Virus record (IMG/VR): IMGVR_UViG_3300024258_000005
Direction: 5' to 3' (one strand)
Length of the DNA: 64,000 bases
Origin: a virus
Under the pieces are notes generated by a model, which was not told the DNA's origin, did no database searches, and saw only the letters and a list, made by a program, of their open reading frames with translations. Positions 28,332 to 62,810 of the stretch are shown here, one piece after another (the stretch's first letter is position 1; the number at the start of each line of letters is the position of its first letter). The position numbers and the translations under genes are program-made.

Positions 28332-30041
28332 TTAATAAATTTTATAGAATACTATATTACCAGAATCATATATTTTTCGGAAATCATTATTATACATATT
28401 AACAGTTTCCGTTAATTCAGCGTTAAATATTGGTAATATTTTATGAAGCTTATGCTTTTGATACTTATTTCTTGATTCTAATAGATTCTGATTCTCTGGT
28501 TTAAAATAGAAATAATTTGGTTGAGATATATGACTAAAGATGAATCCAATTGTCTTATATAAATGTCCAGTGCTCCATCTTCGATTAGCATATGTTACTA
28601 AGCTTACTGGGTTTATTGTTTTTTCAAAATGTTTTAGTAGTTTAGAAGCTGCTCCTAATACTGTATGGTTAAGTTTAGAGCAAAATCTTATTAATTCATA
28701 TTCGTATTGTTTAGACATTCTAGCTTTACCAAACGTCATCAAAGATACTAATTCATCTTTATAATAAAGACCGTATCGGAATTTAGCATTACCATGTCCT
28801 TGTAAATGATTAAGGTCTTCGAATTCTCTAGCTGTTTTTGCGTCAACATCTTTTATAACTGTTTTTCTTCCAAATATTCTAGTAGTTCTTCCCATCTTAG
28901 AATTTATAACGCTTTTCCATATATCTTGTTTTGTATCCCATTCATTTTCAAAAATTTGAAATAATTGAATTTCTTTATTCTCTACTAATTCAGTTTTATC
29001 TAAATGTCTTTTTTTATTTTCTGTTGGATTATTAAACATTGAATATTTACTAATTCCTTGAGAATGAAACATTAATCCATTATATTCGATAGCAAAATTA
29101 TTTGGAACTAATATATCTAATTCTTTATTGATTAAAGTCCTATCACCTTGAATTGTTTCATCTGAATCGATAAACTCAATTATTTCTGTTTCAGCTTCAC
29201 TATTACCAGTACGTTTCGTAAATTCAATATTTAATTCTTCAAATTTTTTATAAACAATTGAAGAACTACAATTAAAATAAGCTCTAAATTTTTTACTTAA
29301 TATATGCTTCTGACTATCTAAGAAATTTTTTTCTATATAATCCGCATCATTCCAAAATATAGAATTATCTATTTTAGTTTCTATTATTTTTAGTTGAACA
29401 TCTTTTGATCCAAACGGTGAGTTAGAATTAAATTTTAACATATTGTTTTGATTTCTTATCTCCTGAACCAGTTTTGATTGGTACGGATAATCGCTACTAT
29501 ATCTTAAATTATTAGTATTTTTTATTTTATTTGAAATTATGGTGGACATAGAAGCTACTTCATTACCAAATAATTTTAAATTTGTTTTTTTAATTTTTGT
29601 AATTATTTCTGAATTTGAAAATACACACTTTGTTCCATATTTTTCTAAATTTGTTTTAATCACTTGATCTTTTTTCTCTTGAGTGGAGTTAACAGATTCT
29701 ACCCCATACTTTAATATACAAGTTTCTTTTATTTTTTGTTTAACTTGTTTACTTTTGCTCATACATTTAACACAACAATAATCCTTAAATTTATAATTTT
29801 GTTTGTTAAATTCTACTTGGTTATTGCAATTGTGATTCTTACAAATTAAATCATTATTAGATAATTCTTGTTTGATTATTTGATATCTGATTTTTATATC
29901 ATTTGTTATATAAAAATCAGTATAATTAAAAAGTATTTTTAAAGCAATTTGAATTTCTGTATCGTTTTTATATTTAGCAGATTCTAAATTATTTTTTAAT
30001 CTTCCAGAATTTAATAATATTTGTATATCATTTATCATCAA
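28332..30041 (-). CDS. Hef-like free-standing homing endonuclease
   Basis: Zn ribbon (CKNHNC...YCCVKC), KYG repeats, ELDILVP...IEYNG...H PD-(D/E)xK core, NHLQG...ELIRFC...ASKLLK...NRRWS...YQKH...IYDSG C-terminal domain. Confidence 0.8.
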   Translation of the reverse strand: MMINDIQILLNSGRLKNNLESAKYKNDTEIQIALKILFNYTDFYITNDIKIRYQIIKQELSNNDLICKNHNCNNQVEFNKQNYKFKDYCCVKCMSKSKQVKQKIKETCILKYGVESVNSTQEKKDQVIKTNLEKYGTKCVFSNSEIITKIKKTNLKLFGNEVASMSTIISNKIKNTNNLRYSSDYPYQSKLVQEIRNQNNMLKFNSNSPFGSKDVQLKIIETKIDNSIFWNDADYIEKNFLDSQKHILSKKFRAYFNCSSSIVYKKFEELNIEFTKRTGNSEAETEIIEFIDSDETIQGDRTLINKELDILVPNNFAIEYNGLMFHSQGISKYSMFNNPTENKKRHLDKTELVENKEIQLFQIFENEWDTKQDIWKSVINSKMGRTTRIFGRKTVIKDVDAKTAREFEDLNHLQGHGNAKFRYGLYYKDELVSLMTFGKARMSKQYEYELIRFCSKLNHTVLGAASKLLKHFEKTINPVSLVTYANRRWSTGHLYKTIGFIFSHISQPNYFYFKPENQNLLESRNKYQKHKLHKILPIFNAELTETVNMYNNDFRKIYDSGNIVFYKIY

Positions 30042-34171: not shown

Positions 34172-37100
34172 TTATATTTTCTTAGCTGTTGTAATTGCTT
34201 CAGCAAATGCTGAATGTTTATCAATAGTATAAACATTCGTTTTACTTGCTTGTAGACCTTGAATAATACCCTGAAGGGCTGCTAATTGCGCCATCATTAT
34301 TTTTGATTGAGATTCGTTATTAATATCAAGTTTTGTCATCTTTTCTAACTCAATTGCTTCAAGTTTTAATAATTGCTCATCTTTTTTATCAATTACTCTA
34401 TCTTCGCTAATGTTCGCGAAAGTACTATCAATTCTTTGTTGAGATTTTTTTATCTTCATACGATTCTTTTCATACTGAGCTTCTTTCGCTTCTTCTGATG
34501 TTAATTGATGAGAAGAATTTTCCGGATCAGTTGCTACAACTTTACTTTTCTTAAACATACTACTATGGAATTTTTGATTTAACATATCACCATCAGCAGC
34601 AAGCATTGCCTTCTGGTCTTTTTTAGATAATGTTTCCCAATAAGCTCTTCCACCTCTTTCCCAAGTATTATCACCTGATCCCATAGTATAATCAATTAAA
34701 GCATTTCCTGAAACATTAGTAGCAACAGTCTTTCCTGTACGCTCTTTAAGTTCTAAACGAATAGCAGTTCTCACCATTAAATTTAACGTACCTTCTTTAA
34801 GCATATACATAAGTTCATCATTATCCATATCTTTAAAACGAGTACGAAGTTTTGCAATACTTTCATCTTTAAGTTGAGTACTAGTGTTGAAATGTATCAT
34901 TGCTTCATCTAAATTATTTTTTTGTTCTTTAGATATAGCACCATCATTCTTGATACCTGATTTACCTTTTTCTTCTAGTCTTTCTTCTTCAGCATTATCA
35001 AAATAAAATTCAGCATATTTATAAGCACTATATGCAACAGCCCCTACAGCAAGAGCAGCAGCAACATAAGGAATTCTTAGAACTGCCATAATAGCAGTAG
35101 GAAATACGCTACCAATATTTTTTAAAACACCCATAAATCCAAGTTTCTTAAAATTAAGTTTACCAAATAAATCTTTAGTACGTTGCCATAGACTAGCACC
35201 GCCAGCTGGAGCTTTAGGTTTTGGAACTGTACGTTTACCAGGACCGCCACCACCGCCACCGAAATCGTAACCGATGCCACCGAATCCGTCTAATAAACCA
35301 GACTCTTCTTGATTCTTTCTCATTCTTTTAGATATCTTTTTACGATTACCTTTAGTACAATTTCCACAAACACCATCACGAATTTCTTCTAAAAGGATAA
35401 GTTGTCTTTCTTGCATAGAGAATTTACGCTCTTGTTGTTCTTCCGACTTCTGAGAGTCCTGAGCGTCCTGAGCAGAAACATTTTCAGTTTCATCTTTATT
35501 CTTGCTACTAATAGATGATACTGATTGACCATCAGAATTTAAAAAGTTATCTAGGAAGCTATTACCACCTCTAGCTTTTTTAAGCTGTGAATCAATAAGT
35601 TTATCTTCATTTTTAGCGCTAAACATTTGTCCCCAAATACTAGGACTTGCATTTAATGTAGTCATCTGCTTCATCATTCGGTCTTTAATGTCTTCATCTT
35701 TGGCTGCATGATAATCATTACCAGCAAATGTACCGTCAAATTTATTCATACTCAATTCATCAAATTTAGAACGCTTTATTGGACCAGCCATTGATTTCAA
35801 TGATTCCATTTGTGAATGGTTATACTTTAAAAGTAATTCAAATCTATCAGGATAAGCTTTACCTAAATAATTAGCCATAAGATCCTGAGGACCCAATTCA
35901 GTAGCACCAACTGCGTCTCGTAAAGCTTCTTCACTGTTAAGAGTAGTATTACTCAAATCACTGGCCATCCAATCGTACATAACTTCTTGTAATCCGCGAT
36001 TCTTCTTACGTTTCTTCTTAGCACCCATTTTACCACTAGCTTGACGCTCCATGATAGTATCACCGTTTTCGTCTGTTTCATATACTTGATTTCCATCAGC
36101 GTCTTTTTCAAGATCACCACCAAACATGTCCTTCACCCAGTTATAGCCACCGGATGCCATCTTAGCAGTACCAGATAATACATTATACCCTGGAATATAA
36201 CCAAGTTTTTCATCAATAGTTTTAAAATGTGATTCATAAAAAGAATCATCAGCCATATTATTGATTTCATTCTCTTCACGAATTCTAGCGAGAAGACCAT
36301 GAGATGATGCTTGAGTAATACCGAAGCCATCAGTACGAATTTTTAAAAGTTCATGTGCTGAGAATCTACTAATTTCAGAAATAAGACCAAGAATAGATAA
36401 TTGTTTAGATTCAAATGTACTAGCTTTACTCATAATTTGAGAGGGTGTTGTATGTATAGCTTGAACTAAAGAACTTGAAACACCCATCTTCTCAGCAAAT
36501 TGTTCTTCACTTTGTAATGCATCAACACCTTTAATTTTACTATTCGCAGTGTTATACATTTCAGTAACTGATTTACCTTGCAGTGTAGCACTTAAATAAG
36601 TACCAGGATCGAAAGTACTTAAAGCGTTAGCCATACCCATTTCGATTCCACCAAAGAATCTATTAGTTAAACTTACATCTTTTGTTGAAGAGTCTGCAGA
36701 GTGTATGGTACCATCATCGCCAAATGTATCACTTAAAGTCTTTTGACCTCCGTAACCACCTTCTTTATTTTTACGAGATTCATTATCTACAGACTCAGCT
36801 GCAATAAAAGGTAGAACTGATGTGTGACCTTCAATCATTGCTAAAATATTAGCAATAAGAGATTCACCAGGTTTCATCTGATGTTGATTTTGCAAACGTT
36901 TAATTTGCATTTGTAGCATACGCGTACTACCATAAGTAGTTTCTAGTTCATGTGGACTAGTACCCATAGTAGTCATTTGTGTACGATTAATTTCTATTTT
37001 AGTACTTGAGTCTTTACTCATATACTTATTTAACGCACCGGCACCTTTCTGCATTGCTATCATAGAAGCAATACCCATACCCATTGGGCTCAATCCAGAG

Positions 37101-37645
37101 ATAGCAGCTTGACCAGCACTTCCTAGTCCTAACATTCCAGCACCAGAAGCTAATCCTCCAGCAGCTGCAGAACCCATACCTTGCATACCACCAAATAAAC
37201 TTGAACCCATCATACCAGTACTTAATAGACTAGTGTTTAGCCCACCACCCATAGCAGCAGCACCATAAGCACCCGTTTTCATTAGTTTAGCAAAACTGCT
37301 TCCAGCTGATGCTGCACTTGCTGCAGCATCACCGAATCCTGAACCAGTTCCTGCCTTTTGATTTAAATTTCTTTGGTAAGCATTCTTTTGAGCATCTGCT
37401 GTTTGTTTAGCACCACTCATTAGCATCATAGCAGATGATACAGGTAACATAGGAGCCAACATTTCAGCCGCTTTTCCACCAACAGCACCAGCCGCTATTT
37501 TACCTACACCAGCCACCATCTTTAATTTTTTAAAAGCTCGAGAATTTAGTACTTTATTTAATCCAGTACGATCGCCAGTCTCAGCCATTTGATCAAGCAT
37601 TGAGTAATACTGTTCCTGTATGGCATTTCTTTTCTTGTCAGACAA
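34172..37645 (-). CDS. Tape-measure/baseplate-hub-like protein
   Basis: 1157 aa, helical, Gly/Ala/Met-rich hydrophobic segments, adjacent to the tube-initiator gene; TTG start with GGAG RBS. Confidence 0.45.
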   Translation of the reverse strand: MSDKKRNAIQEQYYSMLDQMAETGDRTGLNKVLNSRAFKKLKMVAGVGKIAAGAVGGKAAEMLAPMLPVSSAMMLMSGAKQTADAQKNAYQRNLNQKAGTGSGFGDAAASAASAGSSFAKLMKTGAYGAAAMGGGLNTSLLSTGMMGSSLFGGMQGMGSAAAGGLASGAGMLGLGSAGQAAISGLSPMGMGIASMIAMQKGAGALNKYMSKDSSTKIEINRTQMTTMGTSPHELETTYGSTRMLQMQIKRLQNQHQMKPGESLIANILAMIEGHTSVLPFIAAESVDNESRKNKEGGYGGQKTLSDTFGDDGTIHSADSSTKDVSLTNRFFGGIEMGMANALSTFDPGTYLSATLQGKSVTEMYNTANSKIKGVDALQSEEQFAEKMGVSSSLVQAIHTTPSQIMSKASTFESKQLSILGLISEISRFSAHELLKIRTDGFGITQASSHGLLARIREENEINNMADDSFYESHFKTIDEKLGYIPGYNVLSGTAKMASGGYNWVKDMFGGDLEKDADGNQVYETDENGDTIMERQASGKMGAKKKRKKNRGLQEVMYDWMASDLSNTTLNSEEALRDAVGATELGPQDLMANYLGKAYPDRFELLLKYNHSQMESLKSMAGPIKRSKFDELSMNKFDGTFAGNDYHAAKDEDIKDRMMKQMTTLNASPSIWGQMFSAKNEDKLIDSQLKKARGGNSFLDNFLNSDGQSVSSISSKNKDETENVSAQDAQDSQKSEEQQERKFSMQERQLILLEEIRDGVCGNCTKGNRKKISKRMRKNQEESGLLDGFGGIGYDFGGGGGGPGKRTVPKPKAPAGGASLWQRTKDLFGKLNFKKLGFMGVLKNIGSVFPTAIMAVLRIPYVAAALAVGAVAYSAYKYAEFYFDNAEEERLEEKGKSGIKNDGAISKEQKNNLDEAMIHFNTSTQLKDESIAKLRTRFKDMDNDELMYMLKEGTLNLMVRTAIRLELKERTGKTVATNVSGNALIDYTMGSGDNTWERGGRAYWETLSKKDQKAMLAADGDMLNQKFHSSMFKKSKVVATDPENSSHQLTSEEAKEAQYEKNRMKIKKSQQRIDSTFANISEDRVIDKKDEQLLKLEAIELEKMTKLDINNESQSKIMMAQLAALQGIIQGLQASKTNVYTIDKHSAFAEAITTAKKI

Positions 37646-46154: not shown

Positions 46155-46346
46155 TTATGTTAAAGTATAAGCAGTTGCTACTAAAGCTCCTATACCAGCA
46201 GCTGCTGGTATAATACTGCCATCTTTTTTTTCTAGTATATCGTTTTCTTTTTTCAATAATCGATGATCAACATTTATTGTCATTCCTGGATGATTCTTAC
46301 GCGTAGCATCCATATATTCTAATATTAATTTTTTATTTAGTTTCAT
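46155..46346 (-). CDS. ILE-leader family protein (63 aa)
   Basis: Start moved to ATG 46346 (AAGGA RBS): MKLNKKLILEY; hydrophobic C-terminus. Confidence 0.7.
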   Translation of the reverse strand: MKLNKKLILEYMDATRKNHPGMTINVDHRLLKKENDILEKKDGSIIPAAAGIGALVATAYTLT

Positions 46347-47349
46347 AAATATCCTTAATAAACACTTCAGTGTTTCCACCTGAATTTAATACTTTAATAT
46401 TCTCTTCTATTAAATATTGAGAATTATCTTTAATGATTTTTTGTTCTTCAATATATGCGTCCCGACCTGTTTCGAATTGAGTTTCTTTTAAAATTTTGAT
46501 TTTTTTATAATCTGTTTTAGAATATCGTTCCTTAACTGATCTAGATGTAATTCCAATTTTATAATATTTTTTATTATCAAAAGTTATTTCTAAATAATAT
46601 AAGATTGTCGGAGCATTATAAACTGCTCCGTTGATATTATTAATATGATTAATATCTAAATCTTTAAATTTTCTAAGACTAGCATTACTAGACACATTAA
46701 AGAATCTACAAAAATCATTTTTTAAAATCATTCTATGTTCATTTAAGAAATTATTCTCAATAAAATCTTTATCATAATATTTATCATAATTGGTTATATC
46801 TCTCTCGTGTGCAAATCTTACACCATATTTTTTAAGGGAAGTATCCATTCTTTTTTGATACATAATATATTTATTCAATTTTAAAACATCTCGAGAATTT
46901 TGTTTCGATGTTTCTGTACAAGCACTTAATGCTCCATACTTCAACATCATTGTGTTATCTCTAGTCTCTTTTTGTTTAATTAAATCTATTTCACCATCTT
47001 TATATTTACGACTAACTTCATTATATGCATCTTTGTCTGTGTTCCGACACTCGTGTGAACAATAGTTTCCAAAAACCATATTATTCATTTTATAAACTTT
47101 ATGATTAGAACAGTCTTTATGTTTGCATTTTAAATCAGATTCTTCGTAACCATCATTAATAATTTTAAATCTAATTTTTAAATCATCTTTTAAATCGTAT
47201 TTGTCTTGTGATGTATACCATTTAGTTTCATCATAAAGTATTTTTAAACTATCTTTTACTTCTGATAACTTATTGGTAAGTAGACTATGTTTAAGTTTAC
47301 CTACTTTATTTTTTAGTATGTTTAGATACTCTGTATCGTATTGTTTCAT
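46333..47349 (-). CDS. Free-standing homing endonuclease with GIY-YIG/T5orf172-like C-terminal domain
   Basis: LYYLEI...YYKIGITSRSVKERY...EQKII...SGGNTEVF; Zn-ribbon N-terminus shared with 28332 and 59064. Confidence 0.75.
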   Translation of the reverse strand: MKQYDTEYLNILKNKVGKLKHSLLTNKLSEVKDSLKILYDETKWYTSQDKYDLKDDLKIRFKIINDGYEESDLKCKHKDCSNHKVYKMNNMVFGNYCSHECRNTDKDAYNEVSRKYKDGEIDLIKQKETRDNTMMLKYGALSACTETSKQNSRDVLKLNKYIMYQKRMDTSLKKYGVRFAHERDITNYDKYYDKDFIENNFLNEHRMILKNDFCRFFNVSSNASLRKFKDLDINHINNINGAVYNAPTILYYLEITFDNKKYYKIGITSRSVKERYSKTDYKKIKILKETQFETGRDAYIEEQKIIKDNSQYLIEENIKVLNSGGNTEVFIKDIYETK

Positions 47350-54906: not shown

Positions 54907-54923
54907 AAAACAAATCTCTTAAA

Positions 54924-57900
54924 TTAGAGATTTGCTTCGAGACCTGCACCTTGAAAGAATATTTTAATCATATTTAAAGATGTTAAATCTTCAGATTCGA
55001 TATCAATATCAAACGATTCAGGTATTTCATTGTTTCTAACAATTTCATTAATCATTTTCTTTTTAGCTTTACTAGCATCCGACTTCATAGCATGCATTTC
55101 TTTTATAAGACCATAAGGTCTTTTTGAAAGTAATGAATTCATATCGTATAGACCAATCTTAATAGCACCGGTACCTTCTTTAGTACCACTTCGACCTTGA
55201 CCAGTTATCCAGTTCTTAGAAGTATTTAAAGAACCACGAGTTGATGACATTGCTTGAGGAAAATGTTCTAGCATATTGATTGGTAAGATACCAACAGGAA
55301 CTGCTCTAGTTGTAACAATACCATTATTTTCAAGAATCTTAACTTTCTCATTCAAAGGGACACCAAGTACATCAGCAGCTTTTTGGATATTAGAAATAGT
55401 TAACTTATTTTTAAATGGTGGTACAATAGCAGGGAATGCTGGATTATTTAAAGGATGACTATTATTGATAATTTTAGAGATTTCTTTTGTTGATTTTTTA
55501 AAGAACTCATTAAGTTGTTCAATTATAATATGATCTTTTGTTTCATCCAAATGACCAAACACTTCCATAACTAGTTTTTTAATAGCTAAAATTTTACCTT
55601 GTTTATTAAGTTCTAAACAAGCTTCATTAAGATAATAAATAACTTTACCTAAGTACATGGCTAGAAGTATACTAGGATTCTTACGAGAAATAATACTCAG
55701 AGGAGTACCAATAAATTCAATCTTAAGTCCAGTTTCCTCTGCAATAGGTTCCATATCTTTACCCATAACATATTGAACAGTACCTTTACCACCTGAACTA
55801 GTCAGTGTAAACTTTGAACCATTAATAACAGGATTAACCTTTTCAATATAAACTTCAATAATAGCTCCATCAATTTCTTCTTGATTGAACTTATGACCAC
55901 CAATAGTTAATGTTTCAGAATTTTCTAAATGTCCAATACAATCAATATAATCATCATTATTGTCGGTATCAGCTTTACATGCGGCAGCTTTTTTAGAAAT
56001 AGTATCAGTTGTTTGTGAATGTAATGCTAAAATTGGTTTAGGTAATTTTTTAGTATTTAATTTAACAACGATTTCTTTTATTGTTCCACCAGGACTAAGA
56101 TAAGTCTTAGTTAAACCGTCTTGAACTAATCCAACCATTGTAGATTCTTCATCGTCCTCAAGGTCATCATCAATAAATTCTTCTGATGTATTATACTTTA
56201 TTAAAACATCACCTGCTTTCGTAATATTACCTTGTTTTAAATTTAATTCTGATAATTTAGCACCAGTTGTAAATTTAATATTAATCTTTTGAAGAACTTT
56301 ATTAGAAAATTTATCAGTCAGTGTATCACTAACAACCCAACCATCTTCATAATTCATTCCAAGATATCCCATCTCTGCAACAACAAGGTTTTTACCAATA
56401 GCTAACTTACCTGTTTTAAGTGAATCTGTTGTAGCTAAGATTTGACCTTCTTTAACTTTCTCACCAGCGCTTACTAAAGAACTATATTTTGTAGCAATAT
56501 AAATACCACGCTTTGTACGCGATTTAACAGGTGTTATAGCGATAGTTTCTACTGACTTATCATTGTATTGCACTTTGATAGTTTCACTTGTAATCGCTTT
56601 AATAACGCCTTCTTTCTTAGCTTTCTTAGAAAATCTATCTGAAACTAAATGAGGAACATAACTTTCAAAACCTGTTTGAACTAAAGGAACATCCGGCTTC
56701 TCAAGTTGAATAAACTGAGCAGTTTGTTGATTACCCATTACACGACGAGTTGTATCATCATATTCAAAGAAAGGACTTAATGATTCAATAGGACTAAGGT
56801 TCTCAAATGCATTACTATCATTAGTAAATTCTCTACGAGAAATTGATCCAAATCTATCATCAATACGTGCACCATTGGTGAGTGTTTGATTTATACCAAT
56901 ACCACCATACTCATTAGTTGCAGTAGGAGCAATTGTACCAAAATAACTAGGATTTGTATCTCTACGATTAAGAGTAACATCTTGTTTACGAACGTTACCA
57001 ATACCTACTTTAGTTACTTTTAAACTTAACATCATTTCCTCAACAGGATTCAACGTTTTAGTGTACTGAAGTATACCAGCATCTAAAAGATTCTTAATAA
57101 TATAATCATTTTGCATATATATTTTTTCATTACTTAATTGCTTACGAGCTTTAAATTTAGAAAGTGCTTGATGCATTTGATTATAAGCTACACTTGTAAT
57201 AGTCTCAGACATTCTTAAACGATAATTATCTAAATCATATTGACTCTTAGAAGTTCTTTGTCCTAGTAGTTCAACCATTTCATTAGTGAATACACCTGGT
57301 AGATCTGTACTTTGACCAGCATCTTCAAGAATCTTTTTTGTACTTCCATCAATAAATTTATATTCAACATCATATAAATTCTTTGCAGATGTAGCACCTT
57401 GTTTATTAACAATAACTTTCATCATTGCATTGCTAAGACCTTCAAGTGTAGGAGAAAATATTTCATTGTTTAATTTATAAGTGTTAAGACCATTTGCATA
57501 GTTCCATTGGTGCTGATTCTTAGGATATAAACACAAATATTGTCTTGCACCATCTTCTGTTGTAAAGTTCATTACAATACCAGCGTCATTGTCTTTTTTA
57601 TCTTTAAATTGAAATTCTAATTTCATAATACCAAATGCAGATTTCATAGTACTTCTATTAATTAAAAGAAATACTGCTAAAGGAACATTCTTTCCAAGGA
57701 TTCTCATTTCATAGAAAGGCTTTGAACTTTTACTCTTTTTAATAATATCTTCACCCGATACTAAATTATTAATTTTATTATATATATTGAAAATAAATTC
57801 ATTTAAATGAGCTTTGTTGATATGATTAACATCACCATCTTCAGTCTTCGAATAGATATAATCTGATCCACCACGAAGATACGCGTACTCTACAATCTCA

Positions 57901-58022
57901 GAAGTATTTCCAAGTCCCGCTTTTCTTCTTTCATAGAATTGGAGAACTTTAACTTGTTCACCATCTATTGTTTTTGAGACCTCATTTTTGAGATCGATTA
58001 TGTAATCGTTTTTTACAGCCAT
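54924..58022 (-). CDS. rpoB: Phage multisubunit RNA polymerase beta subunit, C-terminal part
   Basis: NPVEE...RDTNPSYFGTIAPTAT, SPFFEYDD.RRVMG, GKNLVVA.MGYLGMNYED, GSKFTLTSSGGKG, PLSIISRKN, MLEH, KIGLYD, KSD colinear with bacterial beta motifs but divergent. Confidence 0.9.
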   Translation of the reverse strand: MAVKNDYIIDLKNEVSKTIDGEQVKVLQFYERRKAGLGNTSEIVEYAYLRGGSDYIYSKTEDGDVNHINKAHLNEFIFNIYNKINNLVSGEDIIKKSKSSKPFYEMRILGKNVPLAVFLLINRSTMKSAFGIMKLEFQFKDKKDNDAGIVMNFTTEDGARQYLCLYPKNQHQWNYANGLNTYKLNNEIFSPTLEGLSNAMMKVIVNKQGATSAKNLYDVEYKFIDGSTKKILEDAGQSTDLPGVFTNEMVELLGQRTSKSQYDLDNYRLRMSETITSVAYNQMHQALSKFKARKQLSNEKIYMQNDYIIKNLLDAGILQYTKTLNPVEEMMLSLKVTKVGIGNVRKQDVTLNRRDTNPSYFGTIAPTATNEYGGIGINQTLTNGARIDDRFGSISRREFTNDSNAFENLSPIESLSPFFEYDDTTRRVMGNQQTAQFIQLEKPDVPLVQTGFESYVPHLVSDRFSKKAKKEGVIKAITSETIKVQYNDKSVETIAITPVKSRTKRGIYIATKYSSLVSAGEKVKEGQILATTDSLKTGKLAIGKNLVVAEMGYLGMNYEDGWVVSDTLTDKFSNKVLQKINIKFTTGAKLSELNLKQGNITKAGDVLIKYNTSEEFIDDDLEDDEESTMVGLVQDGLTKTYLSPGGTIKEIVVKLNTKKLPKPILALHSQTTDTISKKAAACKADTDNNDDYIDCIGHLENSETLTIGGHKFNQEEIDGAIIEVYIEKVNPVINGSKFTLTSSGGKGTVQYVMGKDMEPIAEETGLKIEFIGTPLSIISRKNPSILLAMYLGKVIYYLNEACLELNKQGKILAIKKLVMEVFGHLDETKDHIIIEQLNEFFKKSTKEISKIINNSHPLNNPAFPAIVPPFKNKLTISNIQKAADVLGVPLNEKVKILENNGIVTTRAVPVGILPINMLEHFPQAMSSTRGSLNTSKNWITGQGRSGTKEGTGAIKIGLYDMNSLLSKRPYGLIKEMHAMKSDASKAKKKMINEIVRNNEIPESFDIDIESEDLTSLNMIKIFFQGAGLEANL

Positions 58023-58918
58023 GATAATTCCTTATTAAGTGCTTCATTTAGTATTTTATCTACTATTTTATAATCTTTGTATTTTATTCGAAGTATTTGA
58101 ATATTATTATTATAACAATATTCATTCTTTAATGTATCATTTTTTTGAACTTTTAATAATCCAAGATTTCCTCCAAATTTTGAAGATTCTTTAAAATGCT
58201 GTTTACCATCATATTCAATACAAATATTATGTTCAGGCAAATAAAAATCAAATCTTAGGTTTCCTAAATCAATAAATTTTTTTTCTCGAATAAATTTATA
58301 ATTGTATTTTTTTAAATAATTATAAATTTTTAATTCACCTTTTGATAAATTACATGTTGGACAACCTACACCGTTTAAATGATCATTGGCACACTGCAAA
58401 TAATCACCATGAATTTTACATGTTATAAAACTTTTTTTATATGTTCCACTATAAAAAAAGTTTTCATATGTATATAAATTATTATGTTTTATTTTAGCTT
58501 TTTGTTCAAAATCTTTTAATGTATGCATTTGGGAACATTTAAAACAAGCTGAACCTGCAAGGTGAACAGAAGGTGTTTGATTAAATTCTCCATGAATAGG
58601 ACATATAATGATTCCTTTTTTATACGATTTAGTGTATAAAAATTTTGAATAATTATAGGTATTTTTATGTATAACATTTGATTTTATTATAAAATCTTCT
58701 AATTTTGCAACTTGTTGATTAATACACTGCTTACAACAACCAGTTCTTGAATATATATGTTTATACGGAGTGGTTGTAAATTCACCGTGAATTTTACAAA
58801 TTATAATAATATTTGATGTATTATTTTTATATTCAACTTTGGAATAATCATAATTTCCTAAATGAATTTTTTTTGATAAGGTTAAAAACTTTAAACATCT
58901 AACATTAAGTTTAGCCAT
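58013..58918 (-). CDS. Homing-endonuclease-like protein (DUF723-type Zn repeats plus DUF559/Vsr-like nuclease)
   Basis: Three IxCxIHGxF...HxxGxxCxxC repeats; LRFDFYLPEHNICIEYDGKQHF. Confidence 0.8.
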   Translation of the reverse strand: MAKLNVRCLKFLTLSKKIHLGNYDYSKVEYKNNTSNIIIICKIHGEFTTTPYKHIYSRTGCCKQCINQQVAKLEDFIIKSNVIHKNTYNYSKFLYTKSYKKGIIICPIHGEFNQTPSVHLAGSACFKCSQMHTLKDFEQKAKIKHNNLYTYENFFYSGTYKKSFITCKIHGDYLQCANDHLNGVGCPTCNLSKGELKIYNYLKKYNYKFIREKKFIDLGNLRFDFYLPEHNICIEYDGKQHFKESSKFGGNLGLLKVQKNDTLKNEYCYNNNIQILRIKYKDYKIVDKILNEALNKELSWL

Positions 58919-58919
58919 A

Positions 58920-59062
58920 TTATTTCCTTTGTTCTGCTCTTAACATTTTTTCAGAACTTGTCAAGTTTAAAGGGATTTTGGTTTACCAGTTTTCACTCGC
59001 TCCTCCACACCTAATCTATCTGCTTCTAGAAGAAGCTCAGTTTTATTTATTATTAATTTCAT
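58920..59062 (-). CDS. Micro-gene of the ILE-leader family with a probable 1-nt frameshift
   Basis: MKLIINKTELLLEA... stops at 58967 (31 aa); the -1 frame reads on to TAA at 58920, 1 nt before the next ATG. Confidence 0.55.
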
Positions 59063-59063
59063 A

Positions 59064-60200
59064 TTATGCCTTTATATTATTATTTTTACTATATGTTATT
59101 GTACCTGCATCATAAATTGTTCGACCATTCTCTATTATAAATTCAGGATCGTTGATACTTAAAATACTATAACCCAATTTTTTTAACCAATTACCATTAT
59201 CAATTAATAAATCAACTATAACTTCATTGTCAGTTGGTTCTAGGGGTTCATGTGTTAAATATAATAAAATTAAATGTTTTATATCATCAATGTTATTTTC
59301 ATCCATGTGAAATAATTGTATATTTTTATGTAAACATTCAATTGATTTTTCTTGTTTATGAAACATTTGATAATTTAAATCACTTTGCTTATTACTAACA
59401 TTTTTTGAAAGCTCACTACAATAACTATGCCAATAATTACCATTAAATTCAATAGCAATATTTAAATCAGGAATAAAAATATCAAGTTCAGATGATATAA
59501 TAGTTCTACTATTTTTTATAATATTAGAAATATCACAATCTTCTAACCAATCAATCAGTTCATATTCAACTAAACTTACACCCGTTCGTTTAACATATTT
59601 AATATCTAAGTCAACTAGTTTCCTATTGGCAGCTGTTTGTTGACAATTAAAGAACATTTTAAATTCTGATAATTTAAAATGTTCTTTCTCATCTATAAAA
59701 TTTTTTATTATAAAATCTTTATCAAACCAATAATCATAATTGGTTAAATGCTGATTAAATACATGTTGATTATTGTACATCAAGTTAATCGTTTTATTAT
59801 ATGAATCTTTCATTTTTTTATTTAAATCAATATTTTGCAATGCGTGTTCAACACCATAATTTTTTAGTAGTGTCATTTTTCTTTTATTTTGTACATCTTT
59901 ATCCAAATTTGTACATCTTTGTGAACAGAAATCACTAAACCCTTTTTTAAGTGTTCTAAATTTTACCTGTTGTTCACACTCTATTCGTTTACATACCAAA
60001 TCATTTTCTTTTATATTATTTTTAATGATATAATTTCTAACACTTAAATGATTTGAACCATAATCTGTATAAAATAAGGTGTCAACAATCAATTGTTTAA
60101 TTGATTGTTGAATAATATCGTTATTTATATATGCTTCTTTTGTTAAAAGACCTGTTAATAAATTTCCACTTTTATTTTTTAAAATGTGAAATTTATCCAT
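59064..60200 (-). CDS. Homing-endonuclease-like protein (Zn ribbon plus PD-(D/E)xK)
   Basis: CKRIEC...FCSQRC, NYGVE, ELDIFIPDLNIAIEFNGNYWHS. Confidence 0.75.
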   Translation of the reverse strand: MDKFHILKNKSGNLLTGLLTKEAYINNDIIQQSIKQLIVDTLFYTDYGSNHLSVRNYIIKNNIKENDLVCKRIECEQQVKFRTLKKGFSDFCSQRCTNLDKDVQNKRKMTLLKNYGVEHALQNIDLNKKMKDSYNKTINLMYNNQHVFNQHLTNYDYWFDKDFIIKNFIDEKEHFKLSEFKMFFNCQQTAANRKLVDLDIKYVKRTGVSLVEYELIDWLEDCDISNIIKNSRTIISSELDIFIPDLNIAIEFNGNYWHSYCSELSKNVSNKQSDLNYQMFHKQEKSIECLHKNIQLFHMDENNIDDIKHLILLYLTHEPLEPTDNEVIVDLLIDNGNWLKKLGYSILSINDPEFIIENGRTIYDAGTITYSKNNNIKA

Positions 60201-60201
60201 A

Positions 60202-61761
60202 TTAAGCCTTTATAGTCATTTTTGAATATTTAAAATCGTGTAGATCTCTAAGATCATATTTAGCTGCAATTTCATCTTTATCTGAGTTAGACATATTTTC
60301 TAATTTAATAGCATTAACAGATTTTAATTGTTGTACAAATTTATCTTCTATCTCAACGAAACCATTACCAACTGTAAGTTTAGCATTCTTTATCTTTAAA
60401 GAACTAACACTAAAGTGTGTATAGAAACGTATTAGATTTGGTGCAACTTTCTGAATAGGTTTAGGAAACAGCTGATTGATAAGAATATAATTATTACCAC
60501 CAATCTTAATATATTTACCATTAACAGGAACAGGAATTCTAAAAGATATAGTATAAGGTTTATTTGTAGTCTGTCCGTAATCTTTATGTTGCACTTTTAC
60601 TTGATATTCTTTATATCTATTTTTATTATCATCAACAATTTTTGTTTTAATTCCAAGAACTTTAATATCAACATCTGGATCATTTTCAAGCGTACCATGA
60701 ATAAGATCTTCTACAAGCTCATCTATATTTTCAGTAAGCTCAGTACGTTGTTTATCATAGTTACCCACTTCATCCATACCAACAATCTTTTGTGAATTAA
60801 ATACTGTTTTATGTGGTATATTTAAAGTAACATTACCATTATATTTCTTATTAGCCTCAGAACTTAAATCACTAATTTTATCAGATACGTCTGTTGAAAA
60901 CAATTGATTTATTTTTTCATCAAATGTTCCTTGTAATGTTGTATGTTGTTTTAAAAGACTTTTAATCTCTTTTTGTTTTGATGAAGCATTTGTTTCACTC
61001 ATAGCTAAAGTTTCAATAGCTTTTTTAGTAGCATCTAATTCCTCTTCAGTATCAATAGCCTTAACAACACCTTTGGATAATTTAGTCTTTACTAATTTAA
61101 GTTGACCAATAATATTTCTTAGAAATTTTAATTTATCAGTTTCTTTCTCATCTGGTACAGCTAAAGGATAATACTTATTATTAATAAAATAAACTATACC
61201 ATCTAGGCCAGTTTTAATTTTACCAGCACTTAATTTATCCATATAAATTAATAAATTAAGAAAGTCACTTGAGTCATTATCTAATAAAGGATTACCTATA
61301 ATAAGAAGAATATTTTTTCTTTCTGGTTTATAATCTAACGTAGCGCTTCCAATAAGTTTATTAAACTCATTAAATACCATTTTATTACTTCTACTCTTCG
61401 CAGTACTTAGTAGATCATCAATAAGACCAGAAAGGTCAAATATATTAGTACGTTCATCATTAAGTTGTTTAGCTGGTACACGAGTATATACAAAATTTGG
61501 TAACTCAGCTTTTAGATTAATAAAGTATTTTTGTGATGAAAGTTTCTTACCGAGAAAATTACTAATGATTCCAGGCACAACAATTTGTTGATAATACCCT
61601 TTAATTTGAGTACTCATAAATTTAGATAGAGCTATATCAGATTCAGATTTAGATATAGATTCAGGTACAAAAAATACGTTATTTCCTACTTTATCTTCAT
61701 CCCAAAATCTTACATTTGGTAAAGCCTGTTTGTTTCGAATCAGCTTCGTAGTGTTAATCAT
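60202..61761 (-). CDS. RNA polymerase beta subunit N-terminal fragment with a long unique N-terminal extension
   Basis: C-terminal ISFRIPVPVNGKYIKIGGNNYILINQL matches beta domain 1 (iP...G.f.inG...v.vsQl). Confidence 0.7.
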   Translation of the reverse strand: MINTTKLIRNKQALPNVRFWDEDKVGNNVFFVPESISKSESDIALSKFMSTQIKGYYQQIVVPGIISNFLGKKLSSQKYFINLKAELPNFVYTRVPAKQLNDERTNIFDLSGLIDDLLSTAKSRSNKMVFNEFNKLIGSATLDYKPERKNILLIIGNPLLDNDSSDFLNLLIYMDKLSAGKIKTGLDGIVYFINNKYYPLAVPDEKETDKLKFLRNIIGQLKLVKTKLSKGVVKAIDTEEELDATKKAIETLAMSETNASSKQKEIKSLLKQHTTLQGTFDEKINQLFSTDVSDKISDLSSEANKKYNGNVTLNIPHKTVFNSQKIVGMDEVGNYDKQRTELTENIDELVEDLIHGTLENDPDVDIKVLGIKTKIVDDNKNRYKEYQVKVQHKDYGQTTNKPYTISFRIPVPVNGKYIKIGGNNYILINQLFPKPIQKVAPNLIRFYTHFSVSSLKIKNAKLTVGNGFVEIEDKFVQQLKSVNAIKLENMSNSDKDEIAAKYDLRDLHDFKYSKMTIKA

Positions 61762-61807
61762 TAGAGTTCCTTTTTAAATTTCTTAATTATTTTGTTGTTT
61801 CTATATT

Positions 61808-61816
61808 AATTTGTTA
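61808..61816 (-). promoter_or_regulatory. TAACAAATT variant of the candidate late promoter
   Basis: One mismatch, 47 nt upstream of ATG 61761. Confidence 0.4.
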
Positions 61817-61835: not shown

Positions 61836-61861
61836 ACAAGAAAAAGACCCTAAGGTCTTTT
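61836..61861 (-). terminator. Hairpin terminator with TCTTGT tail
   Basis: AAAAGACC-TTAG-GGTCTTTT-TCTTGT. Confidence 0.7.
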
Positions 61862-62111: not shown

Positions 62112-62361
62112 AACGATCCTCGCTTTTATCTCTCACATAATCTTCAATAGCATCATTAACAATACTATCTACTTTACCATTAAAAGATTCTAGTAAAAAA
62201 TCTAAAAAACATTGAGTACTTTGATCAACATCACCTTTAAAAACCAATTGACCTTTATCAAATTCAAGTCTGCCTACTTCACCTTTAGCATCATTAAATA
62301 CTAAATTATATTGAGGTTCTATCTTAACTTGTTTTTCATCTGAATGATAATGCATTACCAA
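62104..62361 (-). CDS. Hypothetical protein (85 aa)
   Basis: Operon-coupled ORF. Confidence 0.65.
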   Translation of the reverse strand: MVMHYHSDEKQVKIEPQYNLVFNDAKGEVGRLEFDKGQLVFKGDVDQSTQCFLDFLLESFNGKVDSIVNDAIEDYVRDKSEDRCG

Positions 62362-62810
62362 TCCTTATATGGGAGTTTAATTAAGCTTGAGTTAAAATAT
62401 TTAGGATCAGTAAGCTCTTTTCCTAACCACGACGGTTTATCAAAATTTTGATCAGCGTTTTTAAATTCAACTTCTGCAACAACAAGACCTTCGTTATCAC
62501 CATGAAATACATCTACTTCAATTATTAAGTCATCCCATGAAACATTATAACGGGTCTTACTTATTGCACCAGGACATAACTTCAACATTTGTATAGCATC
62601 TACCTTTGGAATATTGTATTCAAACTCATCTCGAGTAATGCTAATATTAGCACCTTTAACTGTGATATATGCAACGTTATCTTTTATTCTGACTCTTACT
62701 ACGCTTTCGTCAGTAATGCTCAAATAACCTTGTTTAATCTTATTAGGTGACTTCGCAAATTTTAGAAATTCATCACTTAGAACTTCAAACTTTCTTTCAA
62801 TCTCTTTCAT
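62355..62810 (-). CDS. CYTH-domain protein (triphosphate tunnel metalloenzyme)
   Basis: EIERKF, KQGYL, VRVRI, RDEFEY, SKTRY, EVDVF, VAEVE. Confidence 0.9.
   Translation of the reverse strand: MKEIERKFEVLSDEFLKFAKSPNKIKQGYLSITDESVVRVRIKDNVAYITVKGANISITRDEFEYNIPKVDAIQMLKLCPGAISKTRYNVSWDDLIIEVDVFHGDNEGLVVAEVEFKNADQNFDKPSWLGKELTDPKYFNSSLIKLPYKDW

Follow-up and report, generated by a model that had tools for sequence, protein, structure and literature searches.

The stretch of viral DNA that we analyzed (IMG/VR record IMGVR_UViG_3300024258_000005; 64,000 nucleotides [nt], hereafter the window) is AT-rich (~29% G+C) and carries nearly all of its coding sequence on the minus strand, and no near-identical DNA was found among the 50,697 phage records that were also the scope of our tblastn searches. 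This analysis concerns the interval at 54924-61761 (-), which a preliminary description had read as the gene for the beta subunit of a multisubunit RNA polymerase (RNAP). A beta subunit is encoded there, but the interval is made up of four genes and one 31-codon open reading frame (ORF) rather than a single beta gene, in the transcription order beta-N, HEG1, 31-codon ORF, HEG2, and beta-C, where HEG denotes a homing-endonuclease gene. beta-N (60202..61761, -; 519 amino acids [aa]) encodes an N-terminal extension followed by the conserved N-terminal block of beta, and beta-C (54924..58022, -; 1032 aa) encodes the Rpb2_3 fork, the Rpb2_6 catalytic double-psi barrel, the lobe, and the C-terminal part of the clamp. 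HEG1 (59064..60200, -; 378 aa) matched phrog_3339 at 4.4e-24, and HEG2 (58013..58918, -; 301 aa) matched phrog_559 at 1.3e-56 as well as Pfam DUF723. Between them lies the 31-codon ORF (58967..59062, -; MKLIINKTELLLEA...), a putative coding sequence with a leader-like N terminus.

Terminator-like hairpins border this set of genes. One (61842..61861, -; an 8-bp stem followed by TCTTGT) closes the upstream gene and forms the 5' border of the beta unit, and the other (54907..54938, -; 13 bp) overlaps the beta-C stop codon and forms the 3' border. Since terminators lie at both ends of the beta locus, we regard the five ORFs as one unit. A promoter-like motif, AACAAATTAATA (61804..61815, -), with the form AACA-N6-TA, is positioned 54 nt 5' of the beta-N ATG, and by analogy with the jumbo phage AR9 the whole interval would be a single late transcription unit behind this one motif.

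Comparisons with protein families and structures identified beta-C as an RNAP beta subunit. beta-C passed the cutoff of Pfam RNA_pol_Rpb2_6 (E value of 1.6e-12; 47.7 bits with a cutoff of 23.4), fell narrowly below that of Rpb2_3, matched phrog_3148 ("RNA polymerase beta subunit") at 1.7e-47, and was matched by bacterial beta chains in the PDB with E values down to 7e-27. In hhalign, the profile of beta-N plus beta-C (N+C) aligned with Escherichia coli beta at 99.85%, with query residues 263-1535 collinear on E. coli residues 32-1333 and ~21% identity of N+C to RpoB. The active-site motifs were in register with those of E. coli beta: NYED (56343..56354, -) corresponds to NFED (E813/D814), GSKFTLTSSGGKG (55782..55820, -), the site of GSKF...GGKG, corresponds to GDKMAGRHGNKG (K1065, K1073), and MLEH corresponds to H1237. 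The segment equivalent to rifampicin cluster I (GILQYTKTLNPVEEMMLSLKVTKVGIGNV...; 56985..57077, -) aligned on E. coli residues 510-545 and contains D516->K, H526->L, and S531->T (E. coli numbering). The divergent beta subunit and the altered rifampicin pocket that the preliminary description had proposed are thus both upheld, and rifampicin insensitivity of the enzyme is a fair prediction from the residues at these positions. Rifampicin insensitivity has been reported for phiKZ-type phages and PBS2, with phiKZ development described as rifampicin independent (PMC13282480).

Searched alone, beta-N matched no Pfam or PHROG family, and its profile found no PDB chain. In relatives with a fused gene (L002, L102, and L105), beta-N is the N-terminal part of a single ORF of 1542-1599 aa, and beta-N residues 345-477 matched the virion-RNAP N-beta proteins of S6, phiR1-37, JD-Fnp4, and phiKZ (E value of 1.9e-9). 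The conserved block of beta-N aligned with E. coli residues ~32-232 and is preceded by an extension of about 260-340 aa that has no bacterial counterpart. An AlphaFold model of beta-N had a mean predicted local distance difference test (pLDDT) score of 70.7, with residues 1-230 at 80-93 and predicted to adopt an alpha/beta fold. Foldseek returned no match for this model at an E value of <=0.001, and the best VIA-align rows were signal recognition particle (SRP)-type GTPase folds with a Z score of 7.3, which is under the stated noise level of the tool. We noticed no Walker A motif (GxxxxGK[ST]) on reading the beta-N sequence by eye, with no formal motif search. Relative to E. coli RpoB, the phage subunit is collinear over E. 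coli 32-1333 and retains the catalytic residues, whereas a ~300-aa N-terminal domain has been added, the rifampicin-contact residues have been replaced, and the protein is encoded in two pieces.

The break between the two pieces, at residues 519|520, aligned with E. coli residue ~232 in a poorly conserved linker. The canonical split of virion betas lies elsewhere, inside Rpb2_6 at about position 285 of the Pfam model, which corresponds to about residue 805 of beta-C near nt 55608; phiR1-37 g099, JD-Fnp4_5, S6_1000, AR9 gp188, phrog_3148, and phrog_14872 all stop at beta-C residues 791-812. beta-C is continuous through the canonical site to residue 1032 and carries the C-beta part, with residues 800-1032 matching AR9 gp077, the virion C-beta. 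Because beta-C runs past residues 791-812 and its last 230 residues match AR9 gp077, the clade to which this phage belongs is not split where the cultured phages are. tblastn with the 161-aa canonical-split segment or with the last 227 aa only gave no match to a phage record, these queries being too short and divergent.

In reviews, the places at which virion and non-virion betas are split are treated as fixed (PMC7598289). The junction at E. coli ~232 is found in several states within the clade, which is populous (contigs as long as 295 kb and >100 protein clusters, whose identities span 42-99%). Besides the three fused relatives named above, we observed adjacent halves separated by a gap of 0-62 nt with no HEG (L003, L099, L100, L103, L104, and L113), adjacent halves with one HEG (L001) or two (the window), and dispersed halves, with N and C ~78 kb apart in G003 (L006/L090) and G005 (L007/L089), which belong to one sublineage. 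Among 109 cluster representatives, 79 were of split length and 30 of fused length, and the tree requires at least 7 changes of state. Relatives at 74-54% identity (L099, L104, L100, L103, and L113) had the same flanking genes and conserved termini at the junction (...KYSKMTIKA* / MAK...).

We then considered which of the two polymerases of such phages the subunit belongs to. tblastn of beta matched jumbo phages only, at 20-29% identity (phiR1-37, the Fusobacterium JD-Fnp phages, Listeria LPJP1, Staphylococcus S6, PBS1, and phiKZ-like phages). The best cultured matches were phiKZ gp178 ("structural head protein"), AR9 gp188 ("virion RNAP subunit"), phiR1-37 g099 ("phage structural protein"), and the "virion-associated" beta of Moabite, and all three segments of this beta had their best cultured matches among virion subunits. 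The N+C profile matched virion N-beta proteins with an E value of 5e-62 over residues 46-1324 and bacterial beta with 1.6e-30, about half the log-score. The extension before the first conserved beta block, ~345 residues here, compares with ~436 residues in S6. Relatives encode a separate second beta-C whose start coincides with the canonical split point of non-virion betas, as does that of AR9 gp088. Together with the position of the gene among head and neck genes, these best matches, the collinearity, and the non-virion-type start of the other beta-C of the clade support assignment of this beta to the virion type.

Other observations weigh against that assignment. The N-terminal extension alone showed no significant match to cultured virion betas (E value of 0.15), and the split site that defines virion betas is missing in this clade. 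The tree of beta with bacterial and phage subunits that the preliminary description had called for, built on a 421-column core, separated all phage betas from bacteria with support of 100/100 and did not settle the grouping into virion and non-virion types: this clade, the cultured virion betas, the AR9-type non-virion betas, and the second beta of the clade were left as four groups without a resolved order. Approximately unbiased (AU) tests rejected neither a grouping of the clade with virion betas (P = 0.42) nor one with its own second beta (P = 0.35). These results would fit a beta that comes from a non-virion (intracellular) polymerase, or two polymerases that arose by duplication within the clade, either of which would make the label "virion type" wrong. 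We consider such an origin unlikely, given that the virion subunits are the closest cultured proteins for every segment, that collinearity with virion N-beta begins at residue 46, that the other beta-C of the lineage starts exactly at the non-virion split point, and that the gene has head and neck genes for neighbors and a late-type motif in front of it. A further beta-like protein, P0121 (1381 aa; from a Joint Genome Institute [JGI] metagenome), contains Rpb2_3, Rpb2_6, and Rpb2_7, is 28% identical to beta-C, and formed the basal branch relative to all phage betas in our core tree.

The genome from which this beta comes had been described as combining T4-like virion modules with an independent transcription machine. 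Our analysis did not bear this out; the lineage is an AR9-like ("group 1"; PMC7824862) two-polymerase phage, and its T4 flavor is generic. By phmmer, eight window ORFs matched AR9, four matched phiKZ, and one, the terminase, matched T4. The morphogenesis matches in the window comprised a large terminase of generic type (phrog_2), a neck protein (Ad2 type) belonging to the family of AR9 gp111, and a baseplate wedge, the last matched weakly. None of the window ORFs matched a T4-specific Pfam or PHROG portal, neck, or baseplate family, so that the gp13-, gp20-, gp48-, and gp53-like genes of the preliminary description were not recovered as such; on profile search the structural genes proved phiKZ-like, in an AR9-like form. 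In G001, a complete relative (281 kb; 100% complete), 25 ORFs matched AR9, 16 matched T4, and 8 matched phiKZ. The AR9 matches include the major head protein, the virion structural proteins gp111, gp126, gp127, gp152, and gp258, the protease, the terminase, and both RNAPs. The T4 matches include ribonucleotide reductase, the terminase, and the annotated homing endonuclease segB, along with proteins that we take, from their T4 map positions, to be topoisomerase, DNA polymerase, and the gp21 protease.

A T4-type phage in which a polymerase of the phiKZ/AR9 type had been added to a T4 morphogenesis module might produce some of these matches, since terminase, prohead protease, sheath-type, and baseplate-wedge genes of the lineage have distant T4 counterparts. 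Such genes are common to AR9 itself, however, and some of the T4 matches are homing endonucleases such as segB, whereas the virion proteins of the lineage match AR9 and not T4 and a search of the window for Pfam portal, neck, or baseplate families specific to T4 found none. The AR9 head protein passes the Pfam Gp23 cutoff, indicating that "T4-like" head genes are already part of the AR9 kind of phage; Gp23 matched no window ORF and nothing in G001 or G002, and its match in G003 was weak (E value of 0.004). We thus regard a T4-type phage with an added polymerase as very improbable. Correcting the label to an AR9-like two-polymerase phage changes how promoters, early genes, and packaged proteins of this genome are to be read.

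Complete IMG/VR relatives also bear on the remaining polymerase subunits. No beta-prime gene was found in the 64-kb window, and two RNAP sets are known from the relatives: G001 to G005 contain beta-prime genes and a second beta. A search for chimallin (phrog_4795) found no match in G001, G002, or G003 at an E value of <=0.1, with the control, phiKZ gp54, found at 1.8e-232. phrog_3209 (phiKZ gp68, the fifth non-virion subunit) found neither AR9 nor the relatives and is thus uninformative for the relatives. The complete relatives encode ThyX (G001:249605-250093 and G002:143845-144219), and neither ThyA nor ThyX was found in AR9.

Returning to the interval, the genes in the gap are tightly packed. 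HEG1 starts 1 nt past the beta-N stop codon, and the last 10 nt of HEG2 overlap the start of beta-C. HEG1 matched the AR9 homing endonuclease gp187 at 4e-9. HEG2 encodes DUF723 repeats and a Vsr/DUF559-like nuclease end, and its best AR9 match was gp146 ("HNH endonuclease, group I intron VSR"), which is located inside the AR9 virion beta-prime gene. A 16-nt near-repeat, ATAAAGGC[T/A]TAATATG, brackets HEG1 (60198-60213 and 59060-59075, -), and the final beta-N codons (IKA-stop) recur in the second copy. HEG1 was absent from relatives L099, L100, L104, L103, and L113, and the nearest relatives for which DNA is available (74% and 69% identity) have the same flanking genes, near-identical termini, and no HEG. 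Because these closest relatives without HEGs are already split at the same codons, the HEG cassette is a recent insertion into an existing gap. We considered whether the HEGs caused the split and rejected this for the present HEGs on the same grounds. Two other endonuclease-like genes occur in the window, bringing its total to four: one at 28332-30041 (-; 569 aa) that matched phrog_3339 at 5e-115, is an AR9 gp187 homologue, and adjoins an AR9 gp127-like virion gene, and one at 46333-47349 (-; 338 aa) that matched phrog_681 at 8e-8.

In the AR9 annotation, the virion RNAP genes consist of 3 to 6 joined exons with intron-borne HEGs, to which the window HEGs are homologous, and beta here might likewise be interrupted by self-splicing group I introns, one or two in number, or by an intein, with the endonuclease genes carried inside and a single full-length protein as the product. 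Yet the beta region had no Rfam group I intron match, either at the gathering score or at an E value of <=1, and the abutting ORFs leave only 145 nt of the insert outside both endonuclease genes, 96 of which are in the 31-codon ORF. In relatives without HEGs, the stop and start codons are unchanged and are separated by 0-62 nt, and the halves are ~78 kb apart in G003 and G005. We regard an interruption of this kind as very improbable. In the T4-like Aeromonas phage Aeh1, nrdA is reportedly split by the free-standing homing endonuclease mobE so that the gene is in pieces. In the Aeh1 case and the present one alike, two ORFs with an endonuclease gene between them specify an essential enzyme, and no splicing is involved; the cases differ in that the present HEGs filled a gap instead of creating one, the HEG-less relatives being already split. 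That the split, endonuclease-invaded beta is a decaying, nonfunctional copy, as interrupted genes can be, has a negligible chance of being correct, because both ORFs are intact with every catalytic motif retained, their termini are conserved relative to relatives at 74% identity, and the same architecture is maintained in >100 cluster representatives.

The promoter-like motif upstream of beta-N recurs across the window. The coding strand has 28 copies of AACAAAT and the opposite strand has 2, and 7 of the 10 intergenic copies read AACAAAT-N3-TA, which places TA at N6 spacing. The consensus of AR9 late promoters, which are used by the non-virion RNAP, is AACA-N6-TA/G (PMC5312081), and the AACAAAT-N3-TA sequences have this form. 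The same motif was found at -32 to -69 before beta-N in five relatives (L099, L104, L103, L113, and L106). Matches to sigma70-type promoters were not enriched (47 observed versus 53.8 expected). The beta gene is bracketed by a promoter-like motif that is not of the sigma70 type and by hairpin terminators, in agreement with the proposal of the preliminary description that the phage has promoter and terminator signals of its own. Counting against a common origin of this signal with that of AR9, AACAAAT seldom occurs in G001, a more distant relative; the likeness to the AR9 late promoter may thus be convergent, and homology is not established.

Considering these findings together, we think it probable that the interval encodes the virion-type beta of a jumbo phage of the AR9/phiKZ kind, made as two polypeptides split at E. 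coli ~232, with HEGs in a preexisting gap and all within one late unit. The polymerase subunit itself is real and of a known kind; what is new is the architecture of its gene. To our knowledge, no multisubunit RNAPs other than those of jumbo phages function without alpha, omega, or sigma. In the model that we propose, an uncultured AR9/phiKZ ("group 1") jumbo phage would transcribe its genome with its own bacterial-type multisubunit RNAPs. beta-N would contribute a phage-specific N-terminal domain and the first ~200 residues of beta, beta-C would contribute the remainder including the catalytic barrel, and both would assemble noncovalently with beta-prime pieces encoded elsewhere. The virion core consists of five or more polypeptides (PMC13282480). 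At the E. coli ~232 linker, the junction has toggled between fused and split states many times in the phage family, and the two free-standing HEGs and the tiny ORF have entered the existing gap and would be carried on the beta transcript with no need of splicing. By analogy with AR9 and phiKZ, the beta gene may be transcribed late from the AACA-N6-TA promoter by the second (non-virion) polymerase, with its product presumably packaged in heads and starting early transcription in the next host.

A bolder proposal is offered tentatively, as one that we think could well be wrong. The clade may retain an ancestral virion beta that is unsplit at the site where cultured phages are cut, in which case the "universal" split would be derived and the region at E. 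coli ~232 would be a second linker permissive for cutting, re-fusing, and dispersal over 78 kb; in addition, the sublineage of the window may use late promoters of the AR9 AACA-N6-TA form despite the ThyX of its relatives, which would amount to template-strand recognition of the AR9 type without uracil DNA. The origin of jumbo-phage polymerases is a standing question, as is what their fixed split sites mean. This clade supplies one subunit in naturally occurring fused, adjacent-split, and dispersed forms, which are useful for questions of assembly and for rooting the history of the splits.

Among known systems, AR9/PBS1 offers the closest parallel. Its virion beta (BI022_gp188 as N-beta and gp077 as C-beta) is homologous to the present protein over the whole length, both come from two-polymerase jumbo phages without chimallin, the same homing endonuclease families occur in polymerase genes, the late promoters have the AACA-N6-TA/G form, and the head protein and several virion proteins are common to the lineage. 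In AR9, however, beta is split within Rpb2_6 (~E. coli 1125), the halves are ~85 kb apart, and the genes are annotated as intron interrupted, whereas in this phage the canonical site is continuous, the break is at ~E. coli 232, and endonuclease genes lie between two ORFs without an intron. AR9 has been reported to use deoxyuridine-containing DNA (dU-DNA; PMC7598289). The presence of ThyX in the complete relatives, in contrast to AR9 with no thymidylate synthase, bears on whether these phages contain thymine or uracil DNA.

The resemblance to the phiKZ virion RNAP lies in gp178, an N-beta that was the best phiKZ match, belongs to the head, and has a long extension at its N terminus; the other subunits of this enzyme are gp149, gp180, and gp80. 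Unlike the complete relatives, in which no chimallin match was found and of which G001 shares eight ORF matches with phiKZ, phiKZ forms a chimallin nucleus, and its beta has the canonical split. Marine phiKZ-type jumbo phages with a multisubunit RNAP have already been reported from metagenomes (PGC_B; Weinheimer and Aylward 2022, PMC9123017). Compared by description, PGC_B is credited with shell and tubulin homologues, whereas the relatives studied here gave no chimallin match.

Two other genes of the window were noted. An ORF of 1157 aa (34172-37645, -), which had no Pfam or PHROG match and no homologue in the complete relative G001, lies where the G+C content of the window is highest (0.33-0.37). 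Directly upstream of the polymerase unit, at 62355-62810 (-), and with no homologue at the syntenic position in relatives L099, L100, and L104, is a gene for a 151-aa protein with a CYTH domain (triphosphate tunnel metalloenzyme; Pfam, 4e-15; phrog_6660).

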